Notes under the pieces: generated by a model
What the model saw: only the letters and a program-made list of their open reading frames with translations
What the model was told of the DNA's origin: nothing
The model's database searches: none
Assembly: GCA_032718475.1 (NCBI GenBank)
Contig: JAUCBJ010008852.1
Span: 28,720 to 92,719 of the forward strand
Direction: 5' to 3'
Length of the DNA stretch: 64,000 nt
DNA from: Nemertoderma westbladi
Taxonomy: Eukaryota > Animalia > Xenacoelomorpha
Made by a program: the position numbers and the translations under genes
Shown here: positions 27,533 through 55,500 of the stretch, one piece after another
How the letters are laid out: the number at the start of each line of letters is the position of its first letter
Position numbering within the stretch: the stretch's first letter is position 1

Positions 27533-28467
27533 GGTTGACTATGTTCTACGCATGTCCTTAGATCATTATAATGATGATGGGGTGATGATAACTCCACCTA
27601 CTGGCTCCAAAAGTCGAGGAAATCCTGCCAAGTACCTAACTGATCTAGACTTTGCTGATGACTTAGGAGTACTCTCAGAATCATTAGAGGGAGCCCAATG
27701 GCTCCTCAGCTCATTAGAACATGCTGCTTCTAGTGTTGGTCTTTTTATTAACTCCAGAAAGACCAAAATTCTGACAGTTAACTTTGAAAGTCCTCAGCAA
27801 GTCTCTGATCGGATGAGCATAAGGTCAAAGGATGGTATGCTTGAGCATGTGGACGACTTCTGTTACCTGGGATCATGGATCCGGAAGTCAGGTGAGGACC
27901 TTCGAATACGCAAGGGAAAGGCATGGGCAGCCTTGAATAGGCTTTCCAGGATTTGGAAGTCACCGAGAATTAAACGGAAACTTAAGGTCCGATTATTTAG
28001 AGCAGCAGTAGTTCCAGTACACCTCTACGGGAGTCCATGCTGGGCTCTAACTGCTGAGGACACCAAATCTCTGGATGGCACATTCACAAGAATGCTACGC
28101 CGGGTTCATTGTGTCAAGTACAATGCCCACATCTCCAACGAGACACTATATAACATTGGAGGTGTCTCATTGGTTCCCCCAAGCTTGACACTAGAACAAA
28201 ATCGCCTCCGCTTTGCAGGACATTGCTTTCGCCGTGAGGACCAGCCAGTGCATAATCTTGTAATTTGGCAGCCTCATGGAGTGAATAAGCATGGAGGACA
28301 GCCCATGACTTTCTTGAGACGCATCTTAAAGGACACTGGCCTTAAAGATGCGGATGATCTAGCAAATGTCATGGGTGATAGGGAGTTGTGGCGGTGCAAT
28401 TTTGTTGACAAGCCGGCACAGCATTCTTAAAAATGCAGCTGCAATGCAGCATGCCGATCCTAGTAGT
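27533..28467 (+). mobile_element. 5'-truncated RTE-clade LINE, copy 2 (RT C-terminal half, LDFADD motif) with TAGTAGT tail
   Basis: ORF 27486-28430 contains DLDFADDL, GLFINSRKTK, FCYLGSWI and RLRFAGHC motifs typical of RTE-type RT. Confidence 0.92.
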
Positions 28468-30142
28468 GCCTCAGGCATTGGGTCGCCTCAGGCATCGGGT
28501 CACCTCAGGCTTCGGGTTGCCTCAGGCATCGGGTCACCTCAGGCTTCGGGTTGCCTCAGGCATCGGGTTGCCTCAGGCTTCGGGTCGTCTCAGGCATCGG
28601 GTCGCCTCAGGCATCGGGTCGCCTCAGGCTTCGGCTCTCCTCAGGCTTCGGGTCGCCTCGGGCATCGGGTCGAACCAGGCTTCGGGTCGCCTCTGCCTTC
28701 GGGTCGCCTCAGGCTTCGGGTCGCCTTAGGCTTCGGGTCGCCTCAGGCATCGGGTCGCCTCAGGCTTCGGCTCGCCTCAGGCTTCGGGTCGCCTCGGGCA
28801 TCGGGTCGAACCAGGGTTCGGGTCGCCTCTGCCTTCGGATTACCTCAGGCTTCGGGTCGCCTTAGGCTTCGGGTCGCCTCAGGCATCGGGTTGCCTCAGG
28901 CTTCGGGTCGCCTCTGCCCTTGGGTCGCCTCAGGGTTCGGGTCGCCTCAGGCTCCAGGTCGCCTCAGGCTTCGGCTCGCCTCAGGCTTCGGGTCGCCTCG
29001 GGCATCGGGTCGCCTCAGGCTTTGGGTCGCCTCTGCCTTCGAGTCGCCTCAGGCTTCGGGTTGCCTCAGGCTTCGGGTCGCCTCAGGCATCGGGTTGCCT
29101 CAGGCTTTGGGTCGCCTCTGCCTTCAGGTCGCCTCAGGCTTCGGGTTGCCTCAGGCATCGGGTCGCCCCAGGCTTCGGGTCGTCTCAGGCATCGGGTCGC
29201 CTCAGGCTTCGGGTCGCCTCAGGCATCGGGTCGCCTCAGGCTTCGGCTCGCTTCAGGCTTCGGGTCGCCTCGGGCATTGGGTCGAACCAGGCTTCGGGTC
29301 GCCTCTGCCTTCGGGTCGCCTCAGGCTTCGGGTCGCCTTAGGCTTCGGGTCACCTCAGGCATCGGGTTGCCTCAGGCTTCGGGTCGCTTCTGTCTTCGGG
29401 TTGCCTCAGGGTTCGGGTCGCCTCAGGCTTCGGGTCGCCTCGGGCATCGGGTTGCCTCAGGCTTCTGGTCGCCTCTGCCTTCGGGTCGCCTCAGGCTTCG
29501 GGTCGCCTCAGGCTTTGGGTTGCCTCAGGCATCGGGTTGCCTCAGGCTTCGGGTCGCCTCTGCCTTCAGGTCGCCTCAGGGTTCGGGTCGCCTCAGGCAT
29601 CGGGTCACCTCAGGCTTCGGGTCGCCTCAAGCATTGGGTGGCCTCAGGCTTCGGGTCGCCTCAGGCATCGGGTCGCCTCAGGCTTCGGGTCGCCTCTTCC
29701 TTCGGGTCACCTAAAGCTTTAGGTCGCCTCAGGCATCGGGTTGCCTCAGGCATCGGGTCGCCTCAGGCTTTGGGTTGCCTCAAGCTTCGGGTCGCCTCAG
29801 GCATCAGGTCGCCTCAGGCTTTGGGTTGCCTCAAGCTTCGGGTTGCCTCAGGCTTTGGGTCGCCTCAGGCTTCGGGTTTCCTCAGGCTTCGGGTCGCCTC
29901 AGGCTTCGGGTCGCCTCAGGCTTTGGGTCACCTCAGGCTTTGGGTCGCCTCAGGCTTCAGGTAGCCTCAGGCTTTGGGTCGCCTCTGGCTTTGGGTCGCC
30001 TCAGGCTTCAGGTCGTCTCAGGCTTTGGGTCGCCTCTGGCTTTGGGTTGCCTCTGGCTTCGGGTTGCCTCAGGCATCGGGTCGCCTCTGGCTTCGGGTCG
30101 CCTTAGGCATCGGGTCGCCTCCAGCTTCGGGTCGCCTCCAGC
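28468..30142. repeat. 17-bp minisatellite, right arm
   Basis: Same unit as 25605-26952; resumes immediately after the LINE tail. Confidence 0.97.
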
Positions 30143-30247
30143 TTTGGCCAACTGTTTGCTTTTGCAATCTTCCATAGAATAAGTTAGCCAAAAGTTAAAT
30201 TTGTGGAGTACTTTAAGCAACAATAATTATAAATAATTTACTTGCAG

Positions 30248-32995: not shown

Positions 32996-33305
32996 GTAAT
33001 TAATTAAATTATTTATTATTGTATTTAAATTATCTGAGGTTTCTAGACCAATTCTAGACCAAAGTTTCTAGACAATTTACTGTTTTGGTTAGAATTTTTA
33101 TACATATTGGGAGCTGTTTTTAAGAAATAATTCTGATATAATTTACTAATTTTCCAGGGCATTTAATATTAATGCGGAACAAGTAGTCAGAGCAGGTTAC
33201 AGGTGTAGGCTACATAAAGGATAACTTTATACGCCGCTTGTGAATATTGCGTGGGCTGACTATTAAATAATGTGAACAAACTGCAAATTGTAAAATGGGG
33301 TACTT

Positions 33306-33615
33306 AAAGTTGTGTGAATGCACTAAGTTGAGCAAGCTGAATATAAAGTTGAGTAAGCGGACAATAAAGTTGAGTAAGCGGACAATAAAGTTGTGTAAGA
33401 GGACAATAAAGTTGTGTAAGCGGACAATAAAGTTGTGTAAGTGAACTATAAAGTTGTGTAAGTGTACTATAAAGTTGTGTAAGTGAACTATAAGTTGTGT
33501 AAGTGAACTATAAGTTGTATAAGTGGACTATAAAGTTGTGTAAATGTACTATAAAGTTGTGTAAGTGAACTATAAGTTGTATAAGTGGACTATAAATTTG
33601 TGTGAACTATAAGTT
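33306..33615. repeat. 21/22-bp minisatellite AAGTTGTGTAAGTGGACTAT(A)A, left arm
   Basis: Tandem units that degenerate toward the left end. Confidence 0.93.
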
Positions 33616-36420
33616 CCGCGCGTCCGCATTGGCTACCAAGATTGAGGTATCGGCCATATTGTGCAGAATGGGTCGCCTTAGTGTCGATCTGCTTCCGCGA
33701 ACACACATTATTACTGAACGTAATAAAGCAAAGCTGATTTTGCGGCGAAGCCACTGAATTGCTTCATTGTAGCTGATCTCTCTCTTCACTGCTAACAAAT
33801 CAGCGAGACGTTTAGTGAAGATATGTGCACTCCAACCCATTCCTCCAGTAGCCGCTAGAATGAAGGGATAGAACGTTGACATTTCTACATCCCGAACTCT
33901 TTCTTCATATTGGGCCCTCTTTCGGTTCTCGTGATGGGTATAAGCTCTATCGACGCCCAAAGAGGAATTGGACGGTGCTAGGGGGTTAAATACAGAAACA
34001 TCAATCAACAGTTTCTCATAACGACCTCCCCAGAAACCACTGACAGATACATCTAACCGAGCACCCTCATCCCTTGTGGTTGTGGAGCGATGGAATGTTT
34101 CCCCAGTGATTGGTTGGAGTACAGGCTCGATTGAAATGTCATGAGCAACCTCGGTTAATGTGTTGGCGATGAAATCTCTGATTTCATTGTGACGGACTGA
34201 CGGAAATCCACCTGTGGGGCACGATAAAACGTGGTTTACTGTGAACCGCGCCCCACAGGCACATTCCGCTGGTGTCGCCTGCAACTGCCATCTGAACCTA
34301 AGCTGGATCGCATCCCTGAACTCTGACTTTGTGAGGTGATAGTTGTGCTGGGTTGATGGTCTGGTGTTGAGCCTTCTGTGAAGATAAGATTCGTAGTTGT
34401 TCCTGAACTGGGGATATTGCGACCTGTATACTTTGTATTTCTTCTGCGACCCTTATGTTTTGCTCCGATTTGATAGCTTTGGATGCTTCTTTCTGTTTTT
34501 CCCTGACATCGGCCATTGTATCTGTTGGAAGTCGCTCCATCAATGGCTCACTGATGGCTCTTGAGTTATTGTATTCCTTACTAAGATCTGATGGAATGGG
34601 TATGCCTAGTCCTCCCAATCTTGTTGGCAGCGCTATTAGTTTCTGTTCGGTTTCAGATAAGTTTACTCTGTTCCCCAGTTTCATTAGGAAAGTCTTAACT
34701 GCCTCGTCGAGTGGTGCCAATAGCAGCTCGATATTGGGGATTACCCGACAAATGAACCGCCACTTCGCAGAGAGTCCAAACGAAAGACAGGTAAATGCAC
34801 AATGCGGGTCAATGTCTGCGATCGGACTCAATCGCTCCACCTGTTGAACAAAAGACTCGACCTTATCAAGAACAAACTGCCGAATGGAATCGTCACTACC
34901 AACTGCACCGCCCAGGATCCTATGACCACCTGCAGATATCTGCACATTGGTTCCTGCAAACAGCATCCTCGCCTCTTCTAATAACTCGGGTTTTACTATT
35001 AACCAAGTTTTTGAGGCATTTGGAAAATACCCGTATTTAGGTCCCCATTCGACCAATTCTCCCCAATATTTTCTTAGTTGTTTTAGACGACTGCTAGCAT
35101 TGGCGTCATCAGCAAACCACTTCTGGGAAGTGGTGGTTACGGCGCCGAGACTATCAATGAGGGGAGTTATGCACAGTCCATATCCGGGCATTGCCACTGG
35201 ACATCCCTGAGTCATTCCTTCAGATGACATGATATATTCTCCATCTATAAACAATTTGGATGGTTTTTTATAGTAGTTAAGCATTGTCTTGTGCAAAGAG
35301 GGGCATATGTAATATATGTTATTTAGTGCAACATGTCTGTTCATTGCGTTAAATGCATTGGATGCATCGATCATCAATAGACCTTCACTGGTGTCAGACT
35401 TGAAATCATCCACCAAGCAGTGTATGGCAGCCTCAACCCCGGATTTTTGACCCAGACATAGCTGGTTTGTTCCCCCAATTTCCTGTAAATCACCTTGAAC
35501 ACAGTAAATAATTGCCTTTCCAACAATCCTTCTAACCACTTCACCAATCCCGATTGGCCTGACCCCTGGGCATTTGTCCAAAGCCAAGAGACGTGATGCT
35601 AAAAGAGGTTCAAGTGAGTCGTTTTCAAGCGACTCCTGCGCTACTCGTTTGGCCAACTGTGCTATGCTCATGCATAGTTCGGTGGACTGCCTGCGAAATT
35701 TCGTCATTATGTGCTTGTACCCATCTACGTCTAACCCCGAGGGACCTGCTGCAGAGCCGTGGATATTTAAGATAGATCTGAGGATAAGTTGTTCATCAAC
35801 TGCTTCAAAAATCACGTCATGATGGATTGGGGTATTTGGGCGAGGTTCCTGTAGTAACACTGAAACGTCGACTTCACCTGGGTTAGGATGCTTTTCCAAA
35901 ACTGCTGCACGTACAGGCTTCTTTGTCTCATTACCTAACGCGTCTGTCTCAATATAAGAGTCATTGATATTCAAAACCTTACCCCTTGAGTTTTCATCTA
36001 GTAGGCGAACGGCCGCTGAGGTGTTGCCGGTTAACATATAGCGAATGAAACGTCGACTTCACCTGGGTTAGGATGCTTTTCCAAAAGTGCTGCACGTACA
36101 GGCTTCTTTGTCTCATTACCTAACGCGTCTGTCTCAATATAAGAGTCATTGATATTCAAAACCTTACCCCTTGAGTTTTCATCTAGTAGGCGAACGGCCG
36201 CTGAGGTGTTGCCGGTTAACATATAGCGAATGAAAACCTTGTTTAGGTCTCCAGATCCAACTGTAGGGCGGGATTTATTTAGTTGGTGTTGAATAGCTCT
36301 ACCTTCTTTCAGAAACTCAGCAAAATCGGCTTGTTTCCATAGTAGCAGTCTTCGTTGTAGCACTAACCGGTGGGTATCTGTGGTAGAACTGCGGCAAGGC
36401 TTTTGGAGGAGGAGAGCAGG
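33607..36420 (-). mobile_element. 5'-truncated CRE-clade-like non-LTR retrotransposon (RT + CCHC + restriction-like endonuclease), frameshifted
   Basis: RT motifs GPSG, RPIGIGE, DASNAFN, QGCP and FADD. C-terminal CACG..H..SC, RHNEIRD, RLD, IDV and K..Y motifs of the RLE domain. A short deletion near 34373 and a 185-bp duplication disrupt the ORF. Confidence 0.88.
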
Positions 36421-36422
36421 AA

Positions 36423-37010
36423 AAAAGTTGTTATAAAAAGTTATAAGTTGTATAAGTGGACTATAAAGTTGTGTAAGTGGACTATAAAGTTGTAAAAGTG
36501 AATTATAAAGTTGTGTAAGTGGACTATAAAGTTGTGTAAGTGGACTATAAAGTTGTGTAAGTGGACTATAAGTTGTATAAGTGAACTATAAGTTGTATAA
36601 GTGGACTATAAAGTTGTGTAAGTGTACTATAAAGTTGTGTAAGTGGACTATAAAGTTGTGTAAGTGGACTATAAAGTTGTGTAAGTGGACTATAAAGTTG
36701 TGTAAGTGGACTATAAAGTTGTGTAAGTGGACTATAAAGTTGTGTAAGTGGACTATAAGTTGTATAAGTGAACTATAAGTTGTATAAGTGGACTATAAAG
36801 TTGTGTAAGTGGACTATAAAGTTGTGTAAGTGGACTATAAAGTTGTGTAAGTGTACTATAAAGTTGTGTAAGTGTACTATAAAGTTGTGTAAGTGGACTA
36901 TAAAGTTGTGTAAGTGTACTATAAAGTTGTGTAAGTAAACTATAAGTTGTATAAGTGGACTATAAAGTTGTGTAATTGGACTATAAAGTTAAGTGGACTA
37001 TAAAGTGTGT
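36423..37010. repeat. 21/22-bp minisatellite, right arm
   Basis: Same unit and orientation as 33306-33615. Confidence 0.95.
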
Positions 37011-37646
37011 GAGCGGAATATTACGTTGTGCAAGACGACTATAAAGAATATGCAAACAGGTTATGAAGGTGTGCAGAGTGATACTTACTTACTGCTCTTT
37101 GGGGCCGTTTCCATGGTTGCGGATAGGGATGATACATCGCCGCGCCCTAATTGTGATTTTAATTTGTCTGCTTATACGAGTGTTTATTACATTAGACGGG
37201 AGGCAGTTTGTTTGGTTGATGCAAGTCATTCTTGGTTTGCATCTTACAATCCCAATTGGAGTCTGTGTGATACATACTGGTTACGGCGGCGGCGACAGAA
37301 TCCATATACTGATAGGTCAGCCTCGGGCCCGCTCAGTATACGTGCAGGTTGGGGGTGCCGGCGGTACGCAAGTACACACCACCTTCATGCCATCTGGTCC
37401 GGGTATGGTCATTACGGTCTTGTGTTATAGAGAACGCTCAAGTTGACCACCACTGCTGTAATGCAGGACAAAGATGGGAGGGGGGGGGGGGGGGGCTCTG
37501 ATTTGTTTATCTTAATTGATTAATTGCGGGGTATTATCGAGTTATAATAATGTACTTAACATATTATATTCAAATGAAATTTAATTTAAAATCATTAAAT
37601 AAATTTATAAAATCTAAAATTACTATGTATGTTTCGTCCCCACTAG

Positions 37647-37766: not shown

Positions 37767-39440
37767 GTCAGTGGGATGTAGGTTTGCTCTACAGTAGATA
37801 CCACCATAGTTAGAGTGCACAACTCAATAAATGTGTAATTATTCAATTAATTGCAAATAATTGAAATCCGCCAATGAAACAATAGATAAGAGTGATTACT
37901 CAATATGCAAACTACGTGAATTCATAATTGAATTTTCTAATAATAAGTCACTCAAATTTAAATAAATAAAATTAATAATACATTTTGTATAAGTAATAAT
38001 TAAACAGGAATTTAAAAGAACAATACTTACAATTGCTATTGAATTGTTTTAAATTGTTTATGAAATATTATCAATAATAACATTGCGAATCCTATTTTTA
38101 TCAATAACAACAATTATTATTATATCTGCACATTTTCATCAGCAATATTTTTTTAATGTTACAATTAATTTTGGATTAAAATAATACATTATCACAATTA
38201 ACTTGGTAGATAAATTTTTGCAAAGCAATTATACTGTATTATAATCAGCGGCTTTTATTCGCACAACAAATTACTCGGGGCGTCTATCTCAATTAAAACA
38301 AAAAAAACTGAATCAATCATAAAAATTACAAAAATCAAACGTTCATACAAAATTAAATAGCACTTTTGACAAACAATTAATCATATTGATGCGCATGTTT
38401 ATACAACGTGGGTATACTGCAGTGGCTGGTTTAGCCAATTTAGTTTCCAGTTTTTAATGGTGATGAAATTCGTTTTAAACAAAAAAGAAAATGGAAAAAT
38501 AGATTCAAACTAATGTGGAAAATAAAAAAGTTTAAAAATTAAAGTAGGAAATGCCATATTAAGTGATCGCAGATTGCTGCTTTATTCAAATTCATTACTC
38601 AATCCCGATGATACCTAATTGAGTACAACCGGCCCCTCCCAGGTTTATTTTATTACATTAAAGTAATTATGTTTTTACTATTGTTTGATATCTTTATTTC
38701 CTAGGTCAGTAGGTAGCATATAGTCTACCGACATTAGTTTGTGGAAACTCTTTCTCCGTTTGCTTATGTTTAAAACAATTTTCTTCACCAATAAATTAAA
38801 TTGGCTTAAATCCGCCATCGTAAGGTACGGATTTATATTTACAATAATATCAAAATTGTTTAATATTTTGTAAATATAATTTTATCGATGAAAAAGAATG
38901 TTAAAAACACCCGAAGTTATATTAATTAAAGATTGTAGAAAATAAAAATATTTGTTGTGGAAATTTAAATCGTTTTATATCAAGAATGATATATTTATTT
39001 AATTTCTCTATACAATAAAAATTACGTGAATTTATTAATGCGCTATGGGCATTGTTAGCTGTGAACTACTTACGAAATGTATCAGTTTATATACAGTATC
39101 AGACCCTATCTGCCAAATCATTGGTGTTATACAAGGCGATAAACGAAGTTAGGAAAATTCGCCCCCGAACACCCCCCCCCCCCCCCCCGGACAGTTCCCC
39201 CCGGACACTTCCCCCCCAGTTAATCTAATCCAGTTGTATCTAGTCAAATTTTTTCAAAATTATAAAAGAAACATTTTTATAGTCAAATTTTGTTTGTTTT
39301 TCATTTAATTGGGGGCTGCCGCCCCCAAACCCCAGCATTTCCCTGAGTGCCCGTGGTGAAAGACTTTGAGACCGTTTTGAAATAATCAATTCATGTTTGT
39401 ATCATAAGATAATAAATTGACTAAGCCTAAAGTAGGAGCT

Positions 39441-40603
39441 TGTAAAAGCTTTTGTGGGATAACTGATTCGTTTGCCTTGTTAACCAGTTCCCCCCCAGGC
39501 GCTGAATACTCTAAAAGGGGATCTATAACTCGAATAGCACAAGTTACCGGCTGATTGGCTGATTCGCTGTGCGAAGGGATCTGGGCTACGTTTGATTGTC
39601 CAACCAGCTTGGGAAAGTATCTGCCAATAGGATTTGAGTTGATTTTGATTTCGACCTATCACAGATCTACTGAACTGAATTTCCTATCTGTATGCTCTTT
39701 CTCTGTGTTGGGTGGAAGCCTTTGTAAATAAGGTTATTCTTATCAGTTTTCAGTGTTGTTGGTCTTTCTTTCCTAAGCCAGGAGAGAACGGCTTGTAAAT
39801 ATTTTGTGCTTTTCTGTTTTAGTCCAACACTAGTAGGCTTAATTATAAAGGGCATATATCCGTTATCAAACCAACACTTAATATCAAACTAATGAACTTA
39901 ACACACACGGAATCACTGTGCATACTTATATATTGTTATACTGCTATTTACTGTCAGTTCTTCATAATATGGTTGATGAATTATTATATTTGGAATAACG
40001 ATAAATAACCCCGAAACCCAATATTCTTGATATACCGAAGGTAAGAGAGAAAGGTTACATATAACGATTGTGACTTATGTTAAAGTGGTTTGAAGTGAAT
40101 CTAATGTTATTTGATAGACCCTACATGAGTCAGTCCGTGTTCCTTTTATATATAACTAAAATCAGTGAAGATCGGCAGATCAGTGTGCAGTATTGTGCAG
40201 CATTGTGTATGAGTGAGCCTGATAACGAAGCATTTCCTAAAGAATGCGCCATATATGTGAATTATAACTAAGCCATATCGTTGTGAGTAGTTTAAGTCAT
40301 AACTCTGTTTATATAGATAGAGCGCCACGTCCTAAAGGAACTGTTAATATTTCCCGAAGGTGAATAATATTGTCAGAGATTATATAATACTGTCAGTCGA
40401 ATAATACATTAGGCTTACATAGCAATAAAATTAAGCCGTCGAACCCAATCTCCCGGGTATATCCAGCGGGTGAATGATCGTGCACAGATTGGTTTCGACT
40501 AGTGTAGTGAATTAAATACTTGTCATAGACTAAATGTGATTTATTATCTAGAAGACATCCTAATTTGGCGGGTTAAACTGCCAAAGGTCTAAAAGCGCGA
40601 ACA
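39441..40603 (+). repeat. 5' LTR (1163 bp)
   Basis: TGTAAAAG...GCGAACA. By eye it differs from the 3' LTR at about 3 substitutions and one 1-bp indel. AATAAA at 40424. Confidence 0.97.
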
Positions 40604-40615
40604 ATAACGGATATA
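40604..40615 (+). promoter_or_regulatory. Non-canonical primer-binding site ATAACGGATATA (complementary to LTR 39855-39866)
   Basis: Abuts the LTR end; no TGG nearby; 12/12 reverse complement of TATATCCGTTAT inside the LTR. Confidence 0.65.
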
Positions 40616-40669
40616 GCTTCTTTATTGCAGTAAGCAATAAAGTTGAAAGTACCGGTCAACCGGTAAACC

Positions 40670-40800
40670 TGAACGGTACTTCAGTAGGTCAGTAGGCCCA
40701 ACCGCCAGAACCGGTACTGCCGTAGGTCCGTAGGTCCAACTGCCAGAACCGGTACTTCTGTAGGTCCGTAGGCCCAACTGTCCTAACCGGTACTTCCGTA
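40670..40800. repeat. About 39-bp tandem repeat (about 3.5 copies) in the retroelement leader
   Basis: Units resemble ACCGGTACTTC(A/T/C)GTAGGTC(A/C)GTAGG(C/T)CCAAC. Confidence 0.8.
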
Positions 40801-40969
40801 TAAGTACATTAGTATTATTCGATTTGATTGTTGCATACCGGTAGGCTGTTTAAGAGATTAGGGACTGTACACCCCTTGTTTCTTTTGGAGCTTACTTATT
40901 TCTGTCAGTTTTATTTTATTTGTAGGCCAGTATTGAACAGAAGGCGTGTAAGCCTGATCAGATTGTGCA

Positions 40970-41540
40970 GACAATTTGTAGGCTGAGCTGTTGTCTGATT
41001 GCTGTTAGGTCTGAACGGATTGCAGTGTGTGTAGATCACCTGTCCGATAAAGAACGGTTAGGAAGTAGGGGCAGCCAATGCTGTAAGGTAAACCCCCAAC
41101 TAAAGAATAAGTCGTACTACTGGGTTAGAACGCATACTACCTAATCATTTCGGAGTCTGCATGTCCTGTAGTTTATTTAGGCTTGAGAGTAGTCTGCCAT
41201 CGTTTAGTCTGTACTTTGATTGTGTAAGTCTGTACGGGTAGCGTATAATATTTATTTAGATAATTTGTAGGCTGGATAGTTGTCTGGCTGTTATTAGGTC
41301 TGAACGGATTGTAGTGTGTGTAGAGCCCTTGTCCGATAAAGAACGGTTAGGAAGTAGGGGCAGCCAATGCTGTAAGGTAAACCCCCAACTAAAGAATAAG
41401 TCGTACTACTGGGTTAGAACGCATACTACCTAATCATTTCGGAGTCTGCATATACCGTAGTTTGTTTAGGCTTGATGGTAGTCTGTCAGTATTTGGTCTG
41501 CATTTTGTTTGAGTAGTTTGTACGCGTAGCGTAATATTTA
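40970..41540. repeat. 289-bp tandem duplication in the leader with an identical core of about 120 bp
   Basis: 41041-41162 matches 41330-41451 while the flanking parts are diverged. Confidence 0.9.
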
Positions 41541-42856
41541 TTATTCAGAGTTTATGCGATTATTCGCAACATTCATTCCCCAAGTTTGTTCCTACAGTAA
41601 TTGTGTTTGTTATACATACCGCTATAGTTAAATTAACCCCGGTACTACACGGGCTGCTTGGCGTAGGTAAAGACTGGTGAGTTGTGCATCGGTCACTCCA
41701 GCAGATGCCGTGGTTCTTTTAGCTGTTCAAGTATTTTTAACTACTGATTATCTGATTGTACAAGTACTCGTACCTAATTTAGGGTTTAGTGTACAGTGCT
41801 TTCCGAAAGTAATTAGTGTAGGCATTATATTTGTGTTGTAAACTGGTTGATAGGCACGTTCGATTAGCTCTATTAACTTCTAGGTAGGGACACTCCGTGA
41901 TACATAACGTAGTACCTATAGCGATACGGCTATAGGTCGTCAGGCGGTAGTATTTTCCTATCTGGACAACGCAGTGTATCTACTACTACTTATTATTTTC
42001 AAATACCGTAGTACCCTGTCCGTTGTAATTACCAGATTTCTAACCCTTTGTTAGGCTGGTTTGTAGACTTCTTGTAAAATTACCCTGAAAATTCGTATTT
42101 TGTGTTTTTTGTAAATTTTTGTGTTTATTTAGAGATTGTAATCTCACCCGAATTGTAAGTAATTTGTAGTATTAAGTAACTTAGGTAAATTAGTATTATT
42201 TGTTTTAGTGTCCTATAAGTAACACTTCACTGAAAGCGTACCGCTTTGTGTAGTGATTACCCCCAGAAATAATAACATTTATTTCAAACATTGACAAAAC
42301 CCATTAAAACGGGTATATATATATTATAAATCAAATCTAACGATTTATAAATCGTAGGCCTACCATACAACCATTAGGTCTCAATATCAGTTGGACTACT
42401 GCTCAAATAACGGTAATAAAGTAAGTAAAGTAACAAAGTAACCCTAAAATTCAGAAATTCAATTATTTAAAATAATTGATATACCGGTATTTACGATAGG
42501 CCTATTATCTTCATTTCTATAAATTTAGGCTGAAACTATACCGGTACTTGTAATTAATTCTATTCCAGAATTATAATTATATACTACAAAACTGTAAGCT
42601 GTATACCGGTATTCCCGATAGGCCTATTATATATTTATATATATTTGTGCTAAAATTATACCGGTATTCTGTGATAAACCTAGTCTGTAATAATAGTTAT
42701 ATATACTATAAGCATACCGGTATTCTAATATATTATATATCACGCTACACTGAGTAGCAGTACCGGTAATTAATTACTAGGCTATCAGTTAATACTGAGT
42801 TACTAGACTTGCTCAGACTGTAATACAGCAGTAGACATTCAACTGTATACATAAAC

Positions 42857-44866
42857 ATGTCTGATACTAAGCAGAACCTGTCAGACAGTTTATTAGATGT
42901 AACTATCTGCGACTCAGATAGAGGCGTAGAACCTTCTAGTCGTAAGTTCAGTTCACCTCCCACTGTGAGGAAAGTCATCCCTCCAGTAGTAATAAAAGAA
43001 CCTAGGCTGGTCCAACATCGTAGGTCTATCATAGGCACTCGAGCTCAGGTCAAGCGGGACCAAGAAGCAGCGGAACAGCAACAACCCGCGAGACAAGAAC
43101 TTACTTCTCAACGGCCCAACAGCTCCAGTAGTGAGGATACTGTAGAACTGACACCAGAACGCGGAGCAAAGATGATGGATGCGGTTTATTCGGATCCCCT
43201 TCTCATCCTTCCTGCAGCCGTACTCACTAGGTTATTGATCGCTGTGGAAGAACACCAGATCGATTGGGCGAGAAGCCAGCGTTCAACTAGAGATAGTTAT
43301 GCTGGATACACAAGGGAAGAACTGAAGTCCATGGTCGAGTCGCAATGGAACTTCCCCGGACCCGGACTCCCGTTTGATTTATCAGAAGCTGCCTGGGAAG
43401 ACATACACCGGATGGGAGTAGCCAAGGAAACCATCGATCCCGCTGTGTGGAAGAGGTCCGCAGCCGGATACGCACAGGGATTCTTCAGCTCTATGGAGCG
43501 AGTAAAAGGACAACTGTTTCAACAACCACAAGGACCTCAAGAGCAGGGACAACTGCTTTATCAAGTGAGAGAAAGAATTCTACGAATCAGGCTAATATTA
43601 TCGGCCTTTGAGGAGGCTTCTAAACGAAGGCAAGACACGTCGTTGCAAGTTGCCGTAAAGACTTGGTTTCAAAGGGTGAGTCTCCAGGTTCAAGGAACAG
43701 CTCAGTGGAAAGCTCAGCTGGAGGAGCGCTCAACCCATGGAGAATCAACAGACGCTACTTTTTCCCAAGTGGAAAGTGAAGCGACGGCAGAGAAACCGCA
43801 TAAGAGGGATGCCATTGACATCTATCTGTCAGACTATCAACGTTTTTTAGGTGATGACGAGTTGAGGAGAAGGTTAGAGGGACTTAGCCCTAATAGTGAA
43901 GGAACCAAGCTTGTGTTGGATGCCATCGATGTGGAAATGAGGGCTGCGAATCAGGCTAAATTTGATGAACAACTCCGCATCACACGAGTCCAGGAAGAAC
44001 AAGTAAAGAAAAAAAGTATAGAAGACAGAAAAGCAGCGGCAGTAGCAGCAGCAGTGGCAGCTGCAGAAGCAGAAACAAAAGCGGCAGCGGCAGTGGCAGC
44101 AGCAGAGGCAAAAGCGGCAGTAGCAGCAGCAAAGGCAGCGGCCGAAGCGGAAGGACGCAAGCGGGAGGCAGTGGCAGAAGCCGAACGGAGAGCGACTGAA
44201 GAAACCACCCAATTAGAATTGGAAAACATTCAGGAGAATCAAGACTGCATAAATAAACAGTTAACAGCTAGTAATATGCAGATGATGAATCGATCTACTC
44301 CCAAAAGACAGGGATATACATCATCTGAGGAAGGCGATACCACCGATACTGAAGGCAAGGGAAATAGATCTCGTCTAAGTAGACGTAAAAGAACATTCCA
44401 CCGTCAGAAATTGCCTGATTTGCCTCCAGCTGTTAGAAGGCAACTAAATAACACCAACTTAGGTAGTACAGAGCCCACAGACCAAATAATTAAAATAGAA
44501 AGACTCCCTACTATAGTAGATGAGCCTGAAATAATTAGGCCTGTTCTTGAAATCACCCCTTCTGTGATAGATACACCTGTGCTCCCTGAAACTACCTCTA
44601 AATTCCCTCTGCATAGCACTAAGCTACCTGTGCCCCGTAGAACTGCCCAGGAGACAGTTCAGGTCCTGGACCCCGAGCGAAATATTCCTGATTTGTCGCC
44701 CGTTGTCCCTCGTCCGCTCGCTGCAACATTGGCGACTCCCGCTTCGGCGGTCGAATGGGTGGACGAGAGACGGCGGGGGATGGATCTCCTGCTCGGGCAG
44801 ATGCAGGAGACTGTCCAGCAATTCAAGGGCACACGTTCGTGGGGCCTTCGCGCAGCACGAGGCCCA
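42857..44866 (+). CDS. N-terminal part of the Bel/Pao polyprotein (long Gag extension with Ala/Glu-rich coiled coil)
   Basis: ATG-initiated ORF of 670 codons up to the insertion; rejoins 46410 in frame (RGP|VRESRLE). Confidence 0.75.
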
Positions 44867-44868
44867 GT

Positions 44869-46407
44869 TATGAGAAACAAATTAAAATTGAGCGACTGTA
44901 TCACAAAATCAGGTTTTGAGAAATTTACCCACACCACCAATCAATCAAAGAAAGGGGGACAGTACGTGTTCACCCCTTTTAACCCCCCCCCCCCACCCTT
45001 CCCAACCACCAATACATAACCGCGACATCTACCACCCACGGAAGGGTAGCACGAACTTATTTCCAATCGCACGTTCAATATGCAAAGCCAGGTGGTTTAT
45101 AGGAATATAATAAACGCAGTACTCGTATTCATTATAAGCCTCGTTGCGTTCGTCCTGTTTTGTATTTAAATATATTTCTTAAACGCAGGCTAGGACGTTC
45201 TTTATAATAATAATAACTAGGGATGCGATCAATATGTGAAGCCAGGTGGTTTATATAATAATTTAGTCAACGCAGTACTCGTCTTCATTATATGCCTCGT
45301 TGCGCTCGTCACTTGTCCTGTTTTGTTATAAAATATTTTTCCTAAACGCAGACTGACGATCTTTATACAGTTATAACTATGCGAAGTTTCGAAACTGTGC
45401 GAGTAACTGTTGATACATCTATGTGGATATGTGTGATATGTGGAGATGTGTGATACAACGCCAACGCATCTTATGCCGATGTAGTAATATGGGTATTGAA
45501 ATAATATTAAATTAATGTACACTCTTAAAGCTGCAGCGAAAAAATGTAGCTAATTTCCTAGGTTACATATAAAATAATAATATTATTTTTAAGAACATTA
45601 ATTTTACTACTTTGCAAAAATTCAATTAAAAAATAACCAGACATATACATTGTGGAATAAACTATTTCAGAAGCCTACACAACAGCCATGCCATGGATAG
45701 TATTTATGTTATGATATCTGTCATTTACCTGAGATAGCAATACAACATTTATAGTGAATTTAAAGAATGCTGTCTGGGCTGGAATAGCAATACTGGTTGT
45801 CTATTACTATTCCTCTCTGGTTAGTCTTAGCAACAACTCCCAGCCAGCAGCAGAGACTTGACCAATAATCATTCCCAGCAACTGGGAATGACACACACAT
45901 CCCATCTATGTACCAGCATGTTGGCCAATAAATGAGCAGTATTTAATGAGAATAAATTTTTTTGCCGTTTTAATTACTTTAGATCAATTAAAGACACAAT
46001 TATTAAAGCAAATCACTTGAACTAATTAAAAACTATAATAGAATGGCGTATGGGGATTACATCTGTATAATTTTTAATTATAATTATTTAAATCTTATAC
46101 TGTAAAACAATTAATTTCCTTTAAAAGGCAGGTTGAAAATGGTGTTTTTACCGTAATAACTTAATTAACTAATTAACTGCTATTATCTTAGCTTCTCGAA
46201 GGCCACACTGAAATTCTACTTGGAAAATTTCTAAACTTTTGCCAAACAACATGTGTACCAAGTTTGGATAGATTTCATCAAAGATTGGCCGAGTTATTAA
46301 CGTTTAAAATTGAACACGACAGAACGACAGAACGACAGAACGACAGAACGACAGGTTGATTAATGGTACCACTACGCTAAGGCTCACTCACTTCGTGGCT
46401 CGCCCCA
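44869..46407. mobile_element. Nested AT-rich non-autonomous insertion (Helentron/DINE-1-like features), flanked by CAGT
   Basis: Interrupts the ORF. Contains a 154-bp internal tandem repeat (45075/45229), an (ACGACAGA)n microsatellite at 46316-46354, a GTGTACCAAGTTTGG core and a GGCTCACTCACTTCGTGGCTCGCCCC end. Family assignment is inferred. Confidence 0.7.
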
Positions 46408-46409
46408 CA

Positions 46410-49400
46410 GTAAGGGAAAGTAGGTTAGAGTTGCAAGAAGTGCAGCAAAGTATCGCGCTAGAACGCGATAAATTAGTAAATACACAAAGGGGTATACCAC
46501 CACCCTCGGTAACAATGTGTCAGCCTGTTAGGTCTGAAGTATCTCATGCGCAAGGTGTGGAGCCTACACGCATATATACTGCTAGCGAAGTAGAAACTCC
46601 TATAGTGAACCCTATTAAGGGTAATTATATACCTGTTGATAATGACATTCCCTATAGAGCTGATCATAATCCGAGAAATTTATATACCGATAACTCGATA
46701 TTAAATAACACGATGGCCCAAGAAAGTTTTACGCGCCAAATGGCTAGAACCAAAGCCCGGCAAGCGGTAAAGGTGGGAGAGATCGTCAAGTTCAATGGAG
46801 ATGAGATGAAATGGTTACCTTTTAATGAATATTACAAAGATAACATACAGAACTCTGTACTATCTAATGGAGAGAAACTTAGATTCCTCATAGAGTGCTT
46901 GGAAGGATCTCCCAAGTCAATGGCGTTAAAATTTATTGGACATCCAGACGGATTAAGACAAGTTTGGGACACACTAAACATCAGGTATGGTAATAGGAAT
47001 AATATCGCTAAGTATTTATATGCAAAATTAGTAGCGCCCAGAAAGTTCATCAGCAGTGGGATAATAGAGTTTTCCGATGAGATTCAAGAGATCTGTAGAC
47101 AATTAGATTGGTTAGGTAAGTCTCATGAATACCAAAGTTCTATGGTCATTGGAGCTGTGGCTTCTACTTTACCGAAAGGTGGGGTAGGCACACGCTGGGA
47201 TAAGAAAGTACTATATATGATGGAACAACAACGACGAGACCCTACCATGGCTGATCTCATGTCATTCCTAGATGGAGAAGTGAAATTACAGCTCCTGAAA
47301 CTGTCCAGAGAGAAGACACCGGAAAACAAGGTAAGTGAAAAACCCGTCTCTAGGAGAAAGGTAACACCAGTGTGTTATACAGATGACGGCGAAAGCCAGA
47401 CTTCTCAAGGAGAAGATAGCGGGAAAGACACTGAGAGATCTTATTATGTCAATAAAATGCCTAAAGATCAGGTAAGTAAATTCAAGTCTCGAGCAAATGA
47501 CAGGAGAGAACAGGTAAGAAAAACTCCTCCCACGTCTCCCAAGAGAATTCCGGTGAGAAAGCCCGAAGAAAAGGCAAGTGTACACAATGTGACTCAAAAT
47601 AAGGTAAGTAACATCAAACCGAAATGTGCGCTGTGTGACGGTACCCACCGTTTGAATATGTGTGATGAATTCCTGAAGAAGTCATTAACGGAGAGACGCG
47701 AAGTCATGTGGGATAAGCGGTTATGTTATAATTGCCTCAGACAAGGACACCAACGGCGTACCTGTTTCTCTGACATAAGGTGTGCAAAGTGTGGTGCGAA
47801 ACATCATATCTTGTTGCACACTGAATTCGAGCGAAATAGTCCGAATCAGGTAAGTGATTCCGAGCTACATGTCCAATTCAGTGATGTGAACGACACTGAT
47901 CAATCTGAGATGGAAGGATTCTATACAGACGAGTTCTCCGACGAAAACGAATCCTGTTACATGATAAATACCGCAGTGTATCGAGCACTCACATATGAAA
48001 AGGATACAGACAACGACTTCACTCTAACTACTTCTGAGCGACAACCATCTTGGAAAGAGCCATCTTCCAATGTAGGGATCCGAGAGTTTCCTGTGGTGCA
48101 AGTAAGGGTTCACGGACCTAAGAGGAGTTATGTAGTGAACGCCCTCCTTGACTCCGGTAGTACAGGAACATTCATCGACAAAGAGCTAGCCGAAGATATA
48201 TTTGCTGGACAACCCAAGTTCCAAACTAAGCTCAACATGTCCGGCATTATGCAAGTTTGGAAATCTACAATAACAGCAGATTATTATGTAGGAGCGTTGT
48301 CCACCCCCCAGGACGAACTAGGAGAACATAGCATAAGGTCAGTGAAAATGGTGGCTATAAAGAACTTCGCTACTACTCAAGCAGACCTTTATAATTGGGA
48401 CGAGGATGAGAGCATCCAACATCTTAACATACCTCGATTTCAGACTGATTATCCTGGAGTGCAAATACTCATCGGCCAAAACGCGCATGAGGCGCTAGAG
48501 ACATTAGAGAAACGGCCTGCTCAACCGCAGCCACTACAGACCTATGCGGTAAGAACTAGAGTAGGTTGGTACTTTACTGGCCCTTCCCGTAGAACACTCA
48601 GAGAAAGACTACCGCAAGAGCGCGTCTACCAGGTGAGTGAATGGGAAGATGATACTAGTGAGGGAGACGATTTAACTGAGGGAACCCCATACTCCTCAGA
48701 TAACGACGACATTCACCAGCTTTTTGATGAGGAGAATACCATCGATCTCCTTAAGGAAAACGAGGCTTGGCAAAACCAAGTGAACTTATGTCAACTTCTT
48801 TATCCATCTGAACGAGAAGCTTATAACGACGAGTTAAATGACGTCATTGAGCGTCATAATGCCAAGACTCGAGATGAACATGCCGTACGATTCTTTACGC
48901 AAGAGGCGGTAGAGCCCAATTCCTACGATAAAGCCTTGTCGGTGGAAGAGGAAAGGGCCAAGCAGATCCAAGAGACAACTACACGTTTCCTCAAAGATCA
49001 AGGTAGGTATGAAGTCGGTCTACCTTTCCGCAAGAAAGAACCGAAGTTCATCAATAACAGACCCTTGGCGGAAAAAAGAATCACGCAACTCCATCGACGC
49101 CTTACGGCTAATTCTTCAGCTAAAGCAATGTATCAAACACAGCTGGAGAAATTTATTAGTAAGGGATACGCGGAGAGAGTACCGGAAGAAACACCTGTGA
49201 CTGAAAGAACGTATTACTTAACTCACCATTACGTTCCTAAACTCGGTAAGCCACATGAAGTGAGAGTAGTGTTTGATGGCTCCGCTCTTTACATGGGTCA
49301 ATCCCTTAACTCTGAATTGTTACCCGGACCCAACTTGCTTCAATCTTTGTTGGGAATTCTTTTAAGATTGAGACAATATTCGATTGCTTTCGCCTCCGAT

Positions 49401-52400
49401 ATAGAAGGCATGTTCTTACAAGTCAAGGTGTTAGATAGGGATCGAGATAGTCTACGATTTCTGTGGTGGCCCGAAGGAGACCTCAACCAGAAACCGGTGG
49501 AGTACTGGATGACCATCCAGGCCTTTGGGATAATCTCAAGCCCTTCCAACGCCTGTTCGGTAGTGCGTACCACTGCAGAAGACAACCGAGAGGCCTTCTC
49601 TAAGGAAGTGATCGACAACATCAAGAGAGACATATACATGGACGACAATCTGAAGTCCCTTCCATCAGTTGAGGAAGCCATTGAGGTCGCTAAAGGAACG
49701 GTAGAGTGCTTAAAAAGAGGTGGGTTTCGATTAACAAAATTCACCAGCAACTCCCGTGAGTTTCTGGAGTCGATCCCTGCGGAAGATCGAGGGGCGAAAG
49801 ATCTAGATTTGATCAAAGATGATCTGCCAGAAACCAAGACACTCGGCTTGAAATGGGACACAGAGCGAGATATTCTGTTTTTCCAGCTAAAACAGCGAGA
49901 TAATCCAGTTCGAACCAAACGGATTTGCTTAAGTATACTGAGCACTTATTTCGATCCATTGGGATTTATTAGCCCAGTTATATTGATTGCTCGTAGTTTG
50001 GTACAACAAATGTGGCTTGAAAACCACTCATGGGACGATCCGCTTAAGGGAGAATTATTGAAGAAGTGGATGGAATGGGAAGATTCTCTGCCGGCTATCG
50101 AGGATTTTATAATTTCCCGTTCATATTTTGGTCATGTTCTCCCTACGTATTCCTATCAACTCCATGTGTTTGGAGACGCCAGCGATATGGGAATAGGTAT
50201 AGTAGCCTACCTAAGAGTGGAAACTCCGGATGGAATCAAAGTCGCCTTGGTTACTTCTAAGGCATTAATCAACAACAAGTTGAAAGTTCCTCGAGCGGAG
50301 TTAAAAGCGGCTCTATACGCTACAGCCATCGGCCGGAATGTAACAGAACAGATTGACTATCCATTAGAGAAAACGGTCTATTGGACCGACGCTTTACTCG
50401 TGTTAGAGTATATAACCAATGAAGTCTGTCAGTTCAGCATCTTCGTTACCAACAGGGTAGCCATCATACTTAGTCGCACGACGATGGACCAATGGAGACA
50501 TTGCCCCGGAACGATTAATCCAGCAGACATCGCTTCCCGAGGAGCGACTCCAAAGGAATTGGTAAATACTCCCGAATGGTTAGGAGGACCCGACTTTCTC
50601 TACAGAGAAGAAGAAGAATGGCCTCCCCATCTCACAACAGCAGAGATCAGACAGGCCAAGGGAGCAGAGAAAGTTAAACCCAAAACTCGAGCGAGTAAAT
50701 CGAAGTTGTTTAAACCTGCGGTTGATCTATCTGTATTATTTACTTCCGGAGATGATGCTTTGGATCAGAAACCCACCGCCACGACTAAAGAAGTCTTGGA
50801 AATCCGTGACAAGGATTGGAAATCTGGAATACCAGATATCGCACAAGGACTCTCACCCCTCTTGCAGAGAGCGATACGTCACTACAGTTCCTGGAATCGG
50901 CTCTGTAAAGCTGTCACCTATTTAAAACGATGTTTTCATCATCGTTACTCCGGGACAAAGACCCATAGTGATGATGCTCCATCAACATCTGCACGAGTCC
51001 ATGTTGTTAAAGACCTTCCCCAATACAAGATATCCGACAGGTTTCTAAAGGAGAAGATCAGTTACCAGGAGCATGATGAAACCAACAAACAGATGCTGAG
51101 ACTTCTACAATGTTATGAGGATTCCGATAAGTATTTCCTGTTGTTAAGAAATCCACAGATGCGCTTAAGGGATCGCTTCTCTAGTACCATGATAGATGGG
51201 TTAATACGTGTTGGAGGCAGGCTGACCAACGCCCCATTATCCTTTGACACTAAGTTTCCCATCCTCATTAGAAATCTTGACATACAAATCAAGATAATTG
51301 TAGATGTTCATAGCAAACTGTACCATGCTGGTAGAGAACGAGTTCTGAGCGAAATTCGCACTCGCTACTATTTTTATAAACCCCGTAGGGCTCTGAACCA
51401 AGTTCTTAGGAACTGCATACCCTGTAGGAAAGCATTCAGTAGGCCTTTAACACAGCGATAGGCAGAATTACCTAGGGAAAGAGTAAGCTTCTATGAACCA
51501 CCCTTTACTAATACCGGTATGGATTTATTTGGCCCTATTGAAGTATATCGTGCCCGGACTATAGTCAAGAGATGGTGTGTCATCTTCGTTTGTATGACTT
51601 GTAGAGCTATCCATCTCGATATGGTAAACGATCTATCCACCAACAGCTTCGTGTTGAGTTTACGACGACAGATCGCTCGTTTCGGAACCAGTAACACGAT
51701 GAGATCGGATAAGGGAACGAACTTCATTGGCGCCAACAACGAAATTCAAGCTTACGTAAAGGACTGGAACAAAAGACAGGTGGACGTTCAGCTAAAGATA
51801 ACAGCGTCTAGCTGGACCTTCAACGCCGCCGACGCCCCTTGGTGGGGAGGAAGTTGGGAGAGATTGATTAGGAGCGTGAAGACTGCGTTCCACTTTATTG
51901 TGCCTTGTCGCGCTTATCTCACCGACGAACTATTGCGGACGTTAATGGAGGAAATCGCCGCCTATCTCAACGAAAGACCGCTTATGCCAGTCTCTTCAAG
52001 TCCTGATTCCCTGGAAGCGCTAACACCCGCACACTTTCTACTGAAGAAACCCGTAGCCATGCTCCCACGATCGGAGATCACAGACGGAGACGAGTACTGC
52101 CGTCGAACCTGGCAACTTATGCAGTTGCTATCCCGTCGTTTCGCTGACCATTTCGAGAAACATTACCTGCCCACTCTACAACTTCGAACTAAGTGGTTTG
52201 CGCAGCAAGAAAACGTCAGCGCTGGAGACATGGTGCTTATTGTGGACCCCGATCTCCCACGTAAGCGATGGCAAACAGGACGTATCATCGAGACTCATAT
52301 CTCGAGCGATGGTTTGGTGCGATCAGTAGAGCTCGTCGTCATGCGTCGTAACTTTAAGAAACCAGGGATAGTCTTTGAGACTCAACAGCTCAATCGCCCA

Positions 52401-52520
52401 GTGGGTCGTTTATGTTTACTGGAAAGAGACAGAGAGCTCTCCGGAAACTATGGAAGGCAAGAAACTCTTCCCACGACCACTTCCCTAATCCAACCGACAT
52501 CTAGGGACTCCCCAACTTAA
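46410..52520 (+). CDS. Bel/Pao Gag-PR-RT-RNaseH-IN polyprotein with an in-frame TAG at 51459-51461
   Basis: Gag KFNGD..W..F; three zinc knuckles (CALCDGTHRLNMC, CYNCLRQGHQRRTC, CAKCGAKHHILLH); protease LLDSGS; RT YMDD; RNaseH LHVFGDAS; integrase HHCC, DLFGP, SDKGTNF and GGSWERL. ORF 51519-52520 is in the same frame as 46356-51461. Confidence 0.95.
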
Positions 52521-55500
52521 TATCGTTCGGAGTGGGCGTGTGACTCTATTATTTTATATTATTTTATTATTTTTATATTTATGTATGTATTACTATGTAA
52601 TTTTATTATAATCGTTTTATTTAATTTAGTAGAATATTATTTAGCGATTATTTTGTAGAATAGTGCAATATATTCGTGTTTATTGCGTACGTAATTACTT
52701 ATATTATATTTAGTGCGACGGCGAAAAATAATTCTTTTTCTCTTTCCTTACTGTCCGTATTATATTATAAATACGTAACTACAGTAAGATGAAATGTCCG
52801 TACTTATTAAAGTACAATAAAGCCACTACTATATTTAAGTATTATTGGTAGGCAGAGTATTAGGAATGCAAAGTTCAGATCCTCGTGTCTCGGCTAAACC
52901 AAGCTCTGGGTAGACCTTGGAAACGACTTGCCTCTTCACACTGACATTGCTTCGTGCGATATTGCTCTCATACCGTATATTAAATAATACATATAGTAGC
53001 GTGATGTCCCTTTAACAGTAGCGTATAACGCAAAATAAATCTGTTAAACCCTTTAACCATCTGTAATTCTAGTCTATTAAGATATCGCGGCACCCACCGA
53101 TATACTTGAAAGACAAATTCTAGAATCAGTGGTTAACGTCCCCAGACAAGTTCTGGAATAAATCGGTGCCCATCTCAAATATTAATTATTTAATATTTGC
53201 AAATCTAATAAGTCAAAATCTGTAAAATTCAGATCCTTCAACAATTCTAGTCAATTAAGATATCGTAGCATTTACCGATATTCTTAAAAGACAATTGTCA
53301 TAGAATTAAGGATCTTGTGTCCCCAGACATATTCTAGAATCAAAATATGTCCATTTAATTATCAAATAATAAAATTTCAGGGAATAATTTAAATTCATGC
53401 CTTTTAATGAATTTAATAAATTGCCATTTTTACGCAATTTATAACATTCCCAAAATTCCATTAATTAATAGATCAAGGGAGCGGAGATTTATCTTATTAT
53501 GCATATGAGTGTGCGAAAGTCTCCCAAACATAGTCAATAGCCGATAAAATTCATAAAGTCATGTATAAAACAGAACATTGACTATTAAAGAATACTATTA
53601 AATAACATCCCAGATCTGTATGCATTGGAATTACCCTAATTCTACCGCTAGCTTTGCATAATGTCACCATAGCAACAACCACGCTAGAATTAGAATTGAG
53701 TTAAAAGAACAATAGAAAGCTTGTCCCATTGAATAGCATAGGGAATAAATAGCGCACTACTAGTATCCAAGGATACATAATAATACAGTGACATTCTGGA
53801 AGGCATTGACTAACGGACAAATGGCCCGAATGTGCGTAGTTGTGACCAGTTGTGTGGTATTTGTGAGTTTATAGGTGAATGTTACTGCTAAAGTGTGTTT
53901 ACAGTAGCTAGTCGCAATCGTAAAAGTAACCTAACTCTCCAAGGAAAACCTGAAGTACATCTAAGCCTTTGGGACGGACAGTTGAGTGACTTGTGCCGGT
54001 TGTCGTTGTCGTTGTACGGCTATGTCGTTGGCGAAAGTACAGCGGCGACGACACATCGGCGCTGAGGATCTCGTACTGTCCGGGGGTTGATTGGGGTAGG
54101 CAGCGACGCCCGCTCGCCTAAATATAAACTCATTATAATATGGATAAACTCATATATAGCAGATATGACGGAGTTGATAGAAGATGGTCTTGGTATCGGG
54201 GAGCGATATACTCTACTTTTACAAGCGTTTGTTGATAGCTTAATACGCGTCGACGTTAGTCCAACTGCTGCGGAGGACGATGATCGTTATATCGAACCTC
54301 CAATGTCCCAAGAGCAGCTCGCGCGAGTTGGACTATAGAAAATTCGCTGCTCGATATACGCAGCGTAATGGTACGTATATGGGCTTCTTAACTACTGATC
54401 ATCCTATCGATTTACACAATACGGACTATGTCGACTATATATCCTGCCCAGCGGAGTCGGAACCATAAACTGAAATTCGAATGCGAAAATTCTATTCGAA
54501 ATCGGCTCGAAAGAAAAGACATTAAAGAAACAAATAAACGCGGTAACTCCAACATATATTTGGAATTCTTGACAGAAGCATTGTAACAACAAATAAATAT
54601 CATCCGCGTTTCCCCTACCAGACGTGCGTCTTTGGTATTATTACGGTAAATGCCCTAGACCCAGCCAATAGGCGGAGGGACATAAACATCAACGGAAACG
54701 TTGTGTTGAACACGGTTGTGTTCGTTGTATTTGCTGGAGTTTCGAGCAAAACTTGTTTGGCGTATCACCTATGCTCGCTCGGCTCTAGCGGTCCTAGAGT
54801 GAGCCTGCGATCGGAGTCCCGGAATACTCGGTCAAGCCTCCTCATTCCTTAGTTGGACCTCAGACCTGCGATCCTGGTGGTGTCGCGGATCCTCGCGGAC
54901 GGTATTCACTGTTCAAGATCTAGTGCTACCCTAACAATTAATCAGTAACACTCCGACAGTGATTTCTAGCTAGCCGCCCACCTTACCTAGCCGGATTATG
55001 ACGCAGACACCTAATATCACTATCCAACCGTATGGTCGTCCCGTTTAACGCAATACAACCCTTCATCAAGGTGAAGGAGAGCGTTGTACGAAGCGAGTTA
55101 AACGCTATTCTATAAAGATCAAAAAAGAAACCTGCGTTTGTTCAGATAAACGTAAGTTATAACAGTAAGTCCAATCGATAAACGAATTGGCCTTATCTCA
55201 GTTCGATTGGGAAATCTCGAATCTCAAAGAAGATATCAAGCTTAGAAAACCCTATTCTCTGCGAGAGTTTTGGACGAACGTATCCCATGACAAGCGGAGG
55301 AAAATCAGCTCGAGGAGAAGCATATCGAAATGGACGAGACACCGACCGTAAACCCAAACCTTCTAATGCAATCATATTGCACCCTTCACCCAGGAGTTAT
55401 GGCCCTCCTAGTAAAGTGGCTCCCCCCAAAGAGAAAAAGACTCTGGCTAACTTTAAAAAACTGCGTAAACGCCGTCCGCGCAAGAAAGACTAACTGTTTA

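Follow-up and report, generated by a model that had tools for sequence, protein, structure and literature searches.

The 17.3-kb retrotransposon described here lies in 64,000 nucleotides (nt) of contig JAUCBJ010008852.1 of the xenacoelomorph Nemertoderma westbladi (positions 28,720 to 92,719, forward strand), a stretch that we call the window and number from its first letter. The element belongs to the BEL/Pao group, and our concern is the primer with which it begins reverse transcription. It is bounded by long terminal repeats (LTRs) that are 99.5% alike, a sign of recent copying; the LTR ends and a 5-bp target-site duplication (TSD), GAGCT on both sides, fix its borders. Its parts, including the primer-binding site (PBS), are these:

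39436–39440, plus strand: left TSD, GAGCT (flanks of the LTRs)
39441–40603, plus strand: 5′ LTR, 1163 nt, TGTAAAAG...CGCGAACA (self-alignment, flanks)
39855–39866, plus strand: predicted self-primer, TATATCCGTTAT (exact complement of 40604–40615)
40604–40615, plus strand: PBS, ATAACGGATATA, adjoining the LTR and not of the type that matches a transfer RNA (tRNA) 3′ end (LTR end, sequence)
42857–45019, plus strand: open reading frame (ORF) of 720 amino acids upstream of gag-pol, without family or homologue found
46314–51461, plus strand: Gag (DUF1759, zinc knuckles), protease (LLDSGS), reverse transcriptase (RT; YMDD), RNase H / Peptidase_A17 and integrase zinc finger, ending at an in-frame TAG (domain matches)
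51462–52520, plus strand: integrase core and DUF5641, frame unchanged (domain matches)
55564–55571, plus strand: short polypurine tract, GGGAGCGG (resembles those of relatives)
55572–56735, plus strand: 3′ LTR, carrying a second copy of the 12-mer at 55986–55997 (self-alignment, TSD)
56736–56740, plus strand: right TSD, GAGCT (flanks of the LTRs)

TG...CA LTRs, a polypurine tract and a short TSD are all characteristic of BEL/Pao elements, and the domains matched—DUF1759, Peptidase_A17, Integrase_H2C2 and DUF5641 among them—stand in the order typical of that group (Belpaoviridae). All 120 protein matches listed for the RT–RNase H region contain PF05380; the best reach 39–43% identity, and those of the 120 that are named come from marine invertebrates or a spider. 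A domain search of the element found no chromodomain, the feature expected in the Pol of Tf1/sushi elements (Ty3/gypsy chromoviruses). The long frame, 46314–52520, contains a single in-frame TAG (51459–51461), which separates the zinc finger of the integrase from its core.

The primer-binding site and its complement in the LTR

An initial annotation of this DNA proposed that the PBS pairs, not with a tRNA, but with a 12-mer inside the LTR, and its description of the bases involved proved accurate throughout. ATAACGGATATA begins at 40604, immediately after the last base of the LTR, with no spacer, and the first TGG beyond the LTR, as would match a tRNA end, is at 40886, 282 nt further on. The exact complement, TATATCCGTTAT, occurs at only two places in the window: at 39855, and at 55986 in the 3′ LTR. 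The match is at offset 0, with its 3′ end falling on the first base beyond the LTR, and two further G–C pairs follow beyond a 1-nt bulge.

Complements of this length are seldom found at this position by chance. When the LTR was shuffled with its dinucleotides preserved, 6 of 20,000 shuffles reached 12 nt at offset 0 (p about 3e-4), and 13 of 20,000 did so at offsets 0–3. For two of the 2,196 positions of the leader the LTR contains a complement of 12 nt, the two being the LTR edge itself and an AT-rich word at 42694, and the PBSs of 19 other elements find complements of at most 8 nt in the window LTR. A search of Rfam with 39300–42900 returned one chance match (E 0.43) and otherwise none, and the 64-kb window contains no tRNA gene.

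Primer-binding sites of related elements

Relatives were fetched by alignment of the window RT–RNase H together with 32 of its matches, and came to 133 loci, 80 from metagenomes and 53 from genome bins; no relative was found in viral contigs. The 53 (L081–L133) come from bacterial or archaeal bins. They match BEL/Pao Pol of animal type, a TSD and both LTRs being present in several, and most likely represent host DNA that remained in these bins. For 23 of the 133 loci the 3′ end of the LTR was set by the point at which its two copies diverge. Without four whose ends are unclear (L034, L054, L091 and L096), and with the ends of three (L009, L105 and L110) moved by hand by 1–3 nt, this fixed-end set comprises 19 elements.

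Five of these have a TGG-type PBS, and none of the five has a complement to it in its LTR. The other 14, which include two sister pairs, have no tRNA PBS. In 11 of them an exact complement of 11–15 nt spans a GT–AG exon junction, and appears only when the predicted LTR intron is removed; in two (L043 and L047) a contiguous complement of 10 nt is present. The splice rule called for a GTRAG or GTAHGT donor, a pyrimidine-rich YAG acceptor, an intron of 50–800 nt, and exact pairing at offsets 0–5. When PBSs and LTRs were swapped between elements, none of 206 pairs reached 11 nt spliced or 10 nt contiguous. Under the same rule the window element scores 12 nt contiguous and 0 spliced, and is not of the intron-split type; a spliced alternative of 11 nt, with its donor inside the 12-mer, was rejected, the donor being weak and the acceptor purine-rich.

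In 13 further loci the LTR end was found by search. Seven of these, two of which repeat families already counted, reach at least 11 nt and two reach 10, against 1 of 156 swapped pairs. The same blind search produced a contiguous 12-mer at L086 that is spurious, the repeat continuing past the supposed LTR end.

Primer sequences differ from family to family, each PBS being matched by its own LTR, and in the sisters L088 and L090 two of the 11 pairs are changed on both sides. Most relatives' PBSs begin GT; the cores of those in L047 and L078 begin AT. The LTRs of L031 and L127 end TA or AA, rather than CA, and both elements have a split-primer match. A T-rich tract ending AG often lies 7–23 nt upstream of the 5′ half of the primer (L003, L009, L010, L016, L031, L060, L071, L088, L090 and L127), which suggests a very short internal exon; as a general feature of the relatives it was discarded, because the enrichment of such tracts relative to other windows of the LTRs is weak (mean rank 0.32).

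In an IQ-TREE phylogeny the window element and all 14 non-tRNA elements fall on one side of a split with support 97/94, and the tRNA-type elements fall on the other, as do all nine loci with tRNA-type PBSs found by motif search, together with L110. The tree covers 44 of 114 aligned rows, is rooted at its midpoint, and is made up of loci fetched with the window element's own matches, without references for the named BEL/Pao clades (Sinbad, Sparrow, Surcouf, Suzu, Bel, Pao and Tas). It nests L043 and L047, which have no intron, within the spliced forms, so that unsplit primers arise repeatedly.

From these comparisons of sequence, we put at roughly 0.7 the probability that the window element primes minus-strand synthesis with a 12-mer of its own RNA, rather than with a tRNA, and that it inherited this trait within a branch in which most primers would be assembled through the splicing of an LTR intron, the present copy being unsplit. 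The site itself is real and probably functional. The broader proposition we consider a little better than an even bet: that an entire branch of BEL/Pao elements in animals starts copying from an internal RNA primer of 10–15 nt normally joined by host splicing, and that the window element is a case in which the intron was lost naturally, showing that the joined sequence alone matters. The initial annotation had envisaged an independent or acquired system. Self-priming is still the reading that fits best, and the relatives add much to its strength, but it is neither peculiar to the window element nor evidently acquired by it: the element lies inside a branch whose members carry differing primer/PBS pairs, mostly divided by a predicted intron, and so self-priming looks inherited, and likely was. 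The unsplit 12-mer would derive, most simply, from the loss of an intron.

Transcript signals, folding and rival explanations

How the 12-mer might reach the PBS depends on where the RNA begins, and the following candidate signals bear on this:

39801–39822, plus strand: splice-acceptor-like tract ending TTTTAG, candidate, 32 nt upstream of the 12-mer (best ad hoc score in the LTR; contigs of three sequencing runs diverge just upstream of 39817)
39844–39849, plus strand: TATAAA, possible TATA box or part of an extended primer duplex (sequence, duplexfold)
40424–40429, plus strand: AATAAA, candidate poly(A) signal, with ATTAAA also at 40511 (sequence)
40564–40585, plus strand: U5 hairpin (predicted folds)
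40620–40642, plus strand: 9-bp leader hairpin directly behind the PBS (fold of 40604–40660: z −3.2, 1 of 200 shuffles)

A start at 39852–39856, which would make the 12-mer the 5′ end of the RNA, as in Tf1, had been predicted, and for this we find no support. The 20–45 nt upstream of the primer contain no TATA-like word, and the same is true of 12 of 13 relatives; it is therefore improbable that the RNA begins with the primer, as it does in Tf1. Downstream of the primer, the window element and 12 of 13 relatives have A[AT]TAAA, and with a poly(A)-like signal placed there, R sequence would be left for the strong-stop jump.

In duplexfold predictions, primer pairing extends to 39846, to give a duplex of 20 bp with two bulges (−21.3 kcal/mol) that overlaps the TATAAA at 39844 (in bases 39846–39849). 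Predicted pairing is 0.77–1.0 for RNAs that start at 39823, 39845, 39850 or 39855, 0.28 from 39835, and no more than 0.03 from 39441–39800. A duplex favored only in RNAs that begin from about 39823 onward would be consistent with splicing to the acceptor-like site at 39822, the prediction being long-range and of low reliability. Acceptors in the LTR were ranked by an ad hoc score of our own making, and the donor candidates upstream of 39822 are only the weak GTAAAT words at 39724 and 39795. A strong donor-like site, AAG/GTAAGAG, is present at 40041, 175 nt behind the primer; an LTR intron there would be lost on copying, and the site may therefore serve a subgenomic gag-pol RNA instead.

One arm of the leader hairpin (40620–40628) competes with the extended primer pairing. 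The U5 hairpin of the initial annotation does appear in predicted folds, but by itself does not rise above chance (z −1.6, 11 of 200 shuffles). Among inverted repeats of at least 9 nt, apart from the U5 and leader hairpins, we found no duplex of the pretzel kind between the PBS flank and LTR sequence behind the primer.

Logan contigs from four runs in four studies, one of which may be the window's own source, cover this part of the element densely and with many variants. Among the contigs listed, loose ends lie just upstream of 39817 in four from run X3, two from X4 and three from X5, and a single X5 contig diverges right behind 39867; in run X1 the summed contig depth is 397,427 at 39847 versus 5,761 at 39909. 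These are weak hints that 39817–39866, which ends with the 12-mer, is a kept block, summed depth not being copy number, 585 further loose ends lying outside the listing, and the upstream loose ends perhaps stemming from another repeat. Variants in either 12-mer are absent from the 40 rows listed of 261, which proves nothing, and X4, only guessed to be RNA, has no splice joint among the 15 listed of 21 joints.

Several observations weigh against self-priming as we read it. The splice rule was fixed after the first splice searches had been inspected; L083 fits neither the spliced nor the contiguous form; the blind search yielded the spurious match at L086; and no compensatory change was seen in the window element's own family. 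The element's position in the tree, between L127 and the rest, has weak support (85/65), at the end of a long branch (0.91). Its primer lies 737 nt from the LTR end, versus 44–203 in 13 relatives, an unusually long loop, and the modeled duplex is unfavored for an unspliced RNA that starts upstream. Finally, the TATAAA at 39844 and a YYANWYY-like word at 39866–39872 could place the start just behind the 12-mer.

This last point, raised as a caveat in the initial annotation, stands, and it leads to the alternative that survives best, though we think it improbable: that the TATAAA is a true TATA box, that transcription starts near 39868–39875, and that the 12-mer, now in U3, reaches the PBS only from the 3′ end of the RNA, or from a second packaged RNA or separate LTR transcript. 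TATAAAGGGC does resemble a TATA box and lies inside the block shared by contigs, and the folding models, which disfavor a 5′ duplex for unspliced upstream starts, would agree with it. The LTR is AT-rich, however, with five TATAWA words including this one; the single X5 contig diverges across the would-be initiator; 12 of 13 relatives lack a TATA-like word just upstream of the primer; and cutting the 3′ copy would strip R from that RNA.

Somewhat less probable again is that the pairing is structural—circularizing the RNA, or hiding the site as a switch—and that priming falls to a different RNA, for example a small RNA or a piece of a tRNA. The complement stops exactly at the base adjoining the LTR, and the relatives' many PBS sequences each match their own LTR, which no single host RNA explains. 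An anticodon loop usually has U33 and a purine at position 37, a context that GTT or CGT in the complement, taken as an anticodon, lacks, and Rfam offered no match. In favor of this alternative, the strong hairpin behind the PBS provides another fold, and half-tRNA priming exists in copia lineages (PMC6317226).

That the match is chance or a relic, the real primer system of this copy being lost or elsewhere, is the least probable of all: a scan reads thousands of LTR elements, chance 12-mers did turn up at L086 and 42694, the loop is long, and the PBS lacks the initial GT of most relatives, but the L047 and L078 cores start AT too, the near-identical LTRs imply recent copying through this very PBS, and the shuffle p-value applies to the one position predicted by theory and by the relatives.

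Proposed mechanism and known systems

If the window element does prime itself, the reaction might run as follows. Transcription would start upstream of 39855, and the 12-mer would pair with 40604–40615. The RNA would be cut behind 39866, probably by the element's own RNase H, and RT would extend the new 3′ end into U5, both steps by analogy with Tf1. Strong-stop DNA would then jump to the 3′ copy of R, and for everything upstream of the cut the template would be the RNA's 3′ LTR copy. Because of this last step an intron there could persist, and it would be lost when that copy is spliced.

Such a mechanism, if true, would explain the large set of marine-animal BEL/Pao elements that have no recognizable PBS, and would be missed by PBS-based annotation. 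Silencing by tRNA fragments would not reach these elements, and in the relatives reverse transcription would be tied to host splicing. The unsplit primer of the window element would be the simplest substrate for a biochemical test.

The remainder of the element and of the window can be described briefly. The 720-amino acid ORF has an Ala/Glu-rich stretch, matches no Pfam family, and has no homologue among 7,994 candidates of 396–1260 amino acids; the AT-rich 1.3 kb between it and gag-pol may have been inserted into a single long frame. The leader is 2.2 kb and contains several sets of direct repeats (40668–40800, 40969–41542 and 42480–42706), many built on ACCGGT words. Some 3 kb of non-coding DNA precede the 3′ LTR, and in this stretch, from integrase to polypurine tract (52521–55563), no ORF exceeds about 100 amino acids; it is possibly a decayed extra gene. 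Outside the element, a non-LTR retrotransposon in pieces (33607–36585, minus strand; RVT_1, zinc knuckle, nuclease-like end), which we take to be CRE-like, contains a 190-nt duplication, and has a 21-bp satellite on both sides (33279–33615 and 36424–37046). Positions 1–21500 and 25640–30200 are occupied by a long G/T-skewed tandem array with stop-free frames of more than 4,000 codons, and by a 17-bp satellite of more than 160 copies.

No report of self-priming or of intron-split primers in BEL/Pao elements was found in full-text searches of the literature; subscription papers, Repbase notes and supplements lay outside that search, and prior mention is possible. By term search, neither the Sinbad paper (PMC554778) nor PMC3118150 or PMC6238403 mentions a PBS. 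Further background is in PMC5443660, PMC6934838 and PMC3601003.

The window element shares its domain order, TG...CA LTRs and 5-bp TSD with BEL/Pao elements primed by tRNA. These differ from it in having a PBS of the TGGTCCTTCGAGCCGGAT type or similar, with no LTR complement in any of the five, and in lying across the 97/94 split. In its priming it resembles the Tf1/sushi chromoviruses instead—Tf1 and Tf2 of Schizosaccharomyces pombe, Tj1 (PMC4600332) and Tosmo—which likewise have no tRNA PBS, and in which the PBS abuts the terminal CA of the LTR and complements about 11 nt of LTR sequence. Tf1 uses as primer the leading 11 nt of its RNA, held within a three-duplex ‘pretzel’ (PMC10085805), and RNase H cuts behind this primer (PMC7175516). 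The window element, in contrast, belongs to BEL/Pao and not to Ty3/gypsy, its loop is 737 nt, the flanking pretzel duplexes were not found, and predicted introns divide the primers of its relatives. The PBS of Tf1 begins ATAAC, as the initial annotation stated (PMC11042837). That the window PBS starts likewise is probably coincidence, and acquisition from Tf1 can be rejected: five letters are all that is shared, and the element groups with BEL/Pao.

Another parallel is offered by Tcn1 and the plant TAR lineages of Ty1/copia (Houba, Osr-1), for which self-priming has also been predicted from sequence, in lineages outside or beside Tf1/sushi (PMC6317226). These belong to other superfamilies and to plants, and the excerpt of that paper makes no mention of intron-split primers. 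Independent origins have thus been proposed already, and self-priming in BEL/Pao, if true, would add one more origin of priming without a tRNA.
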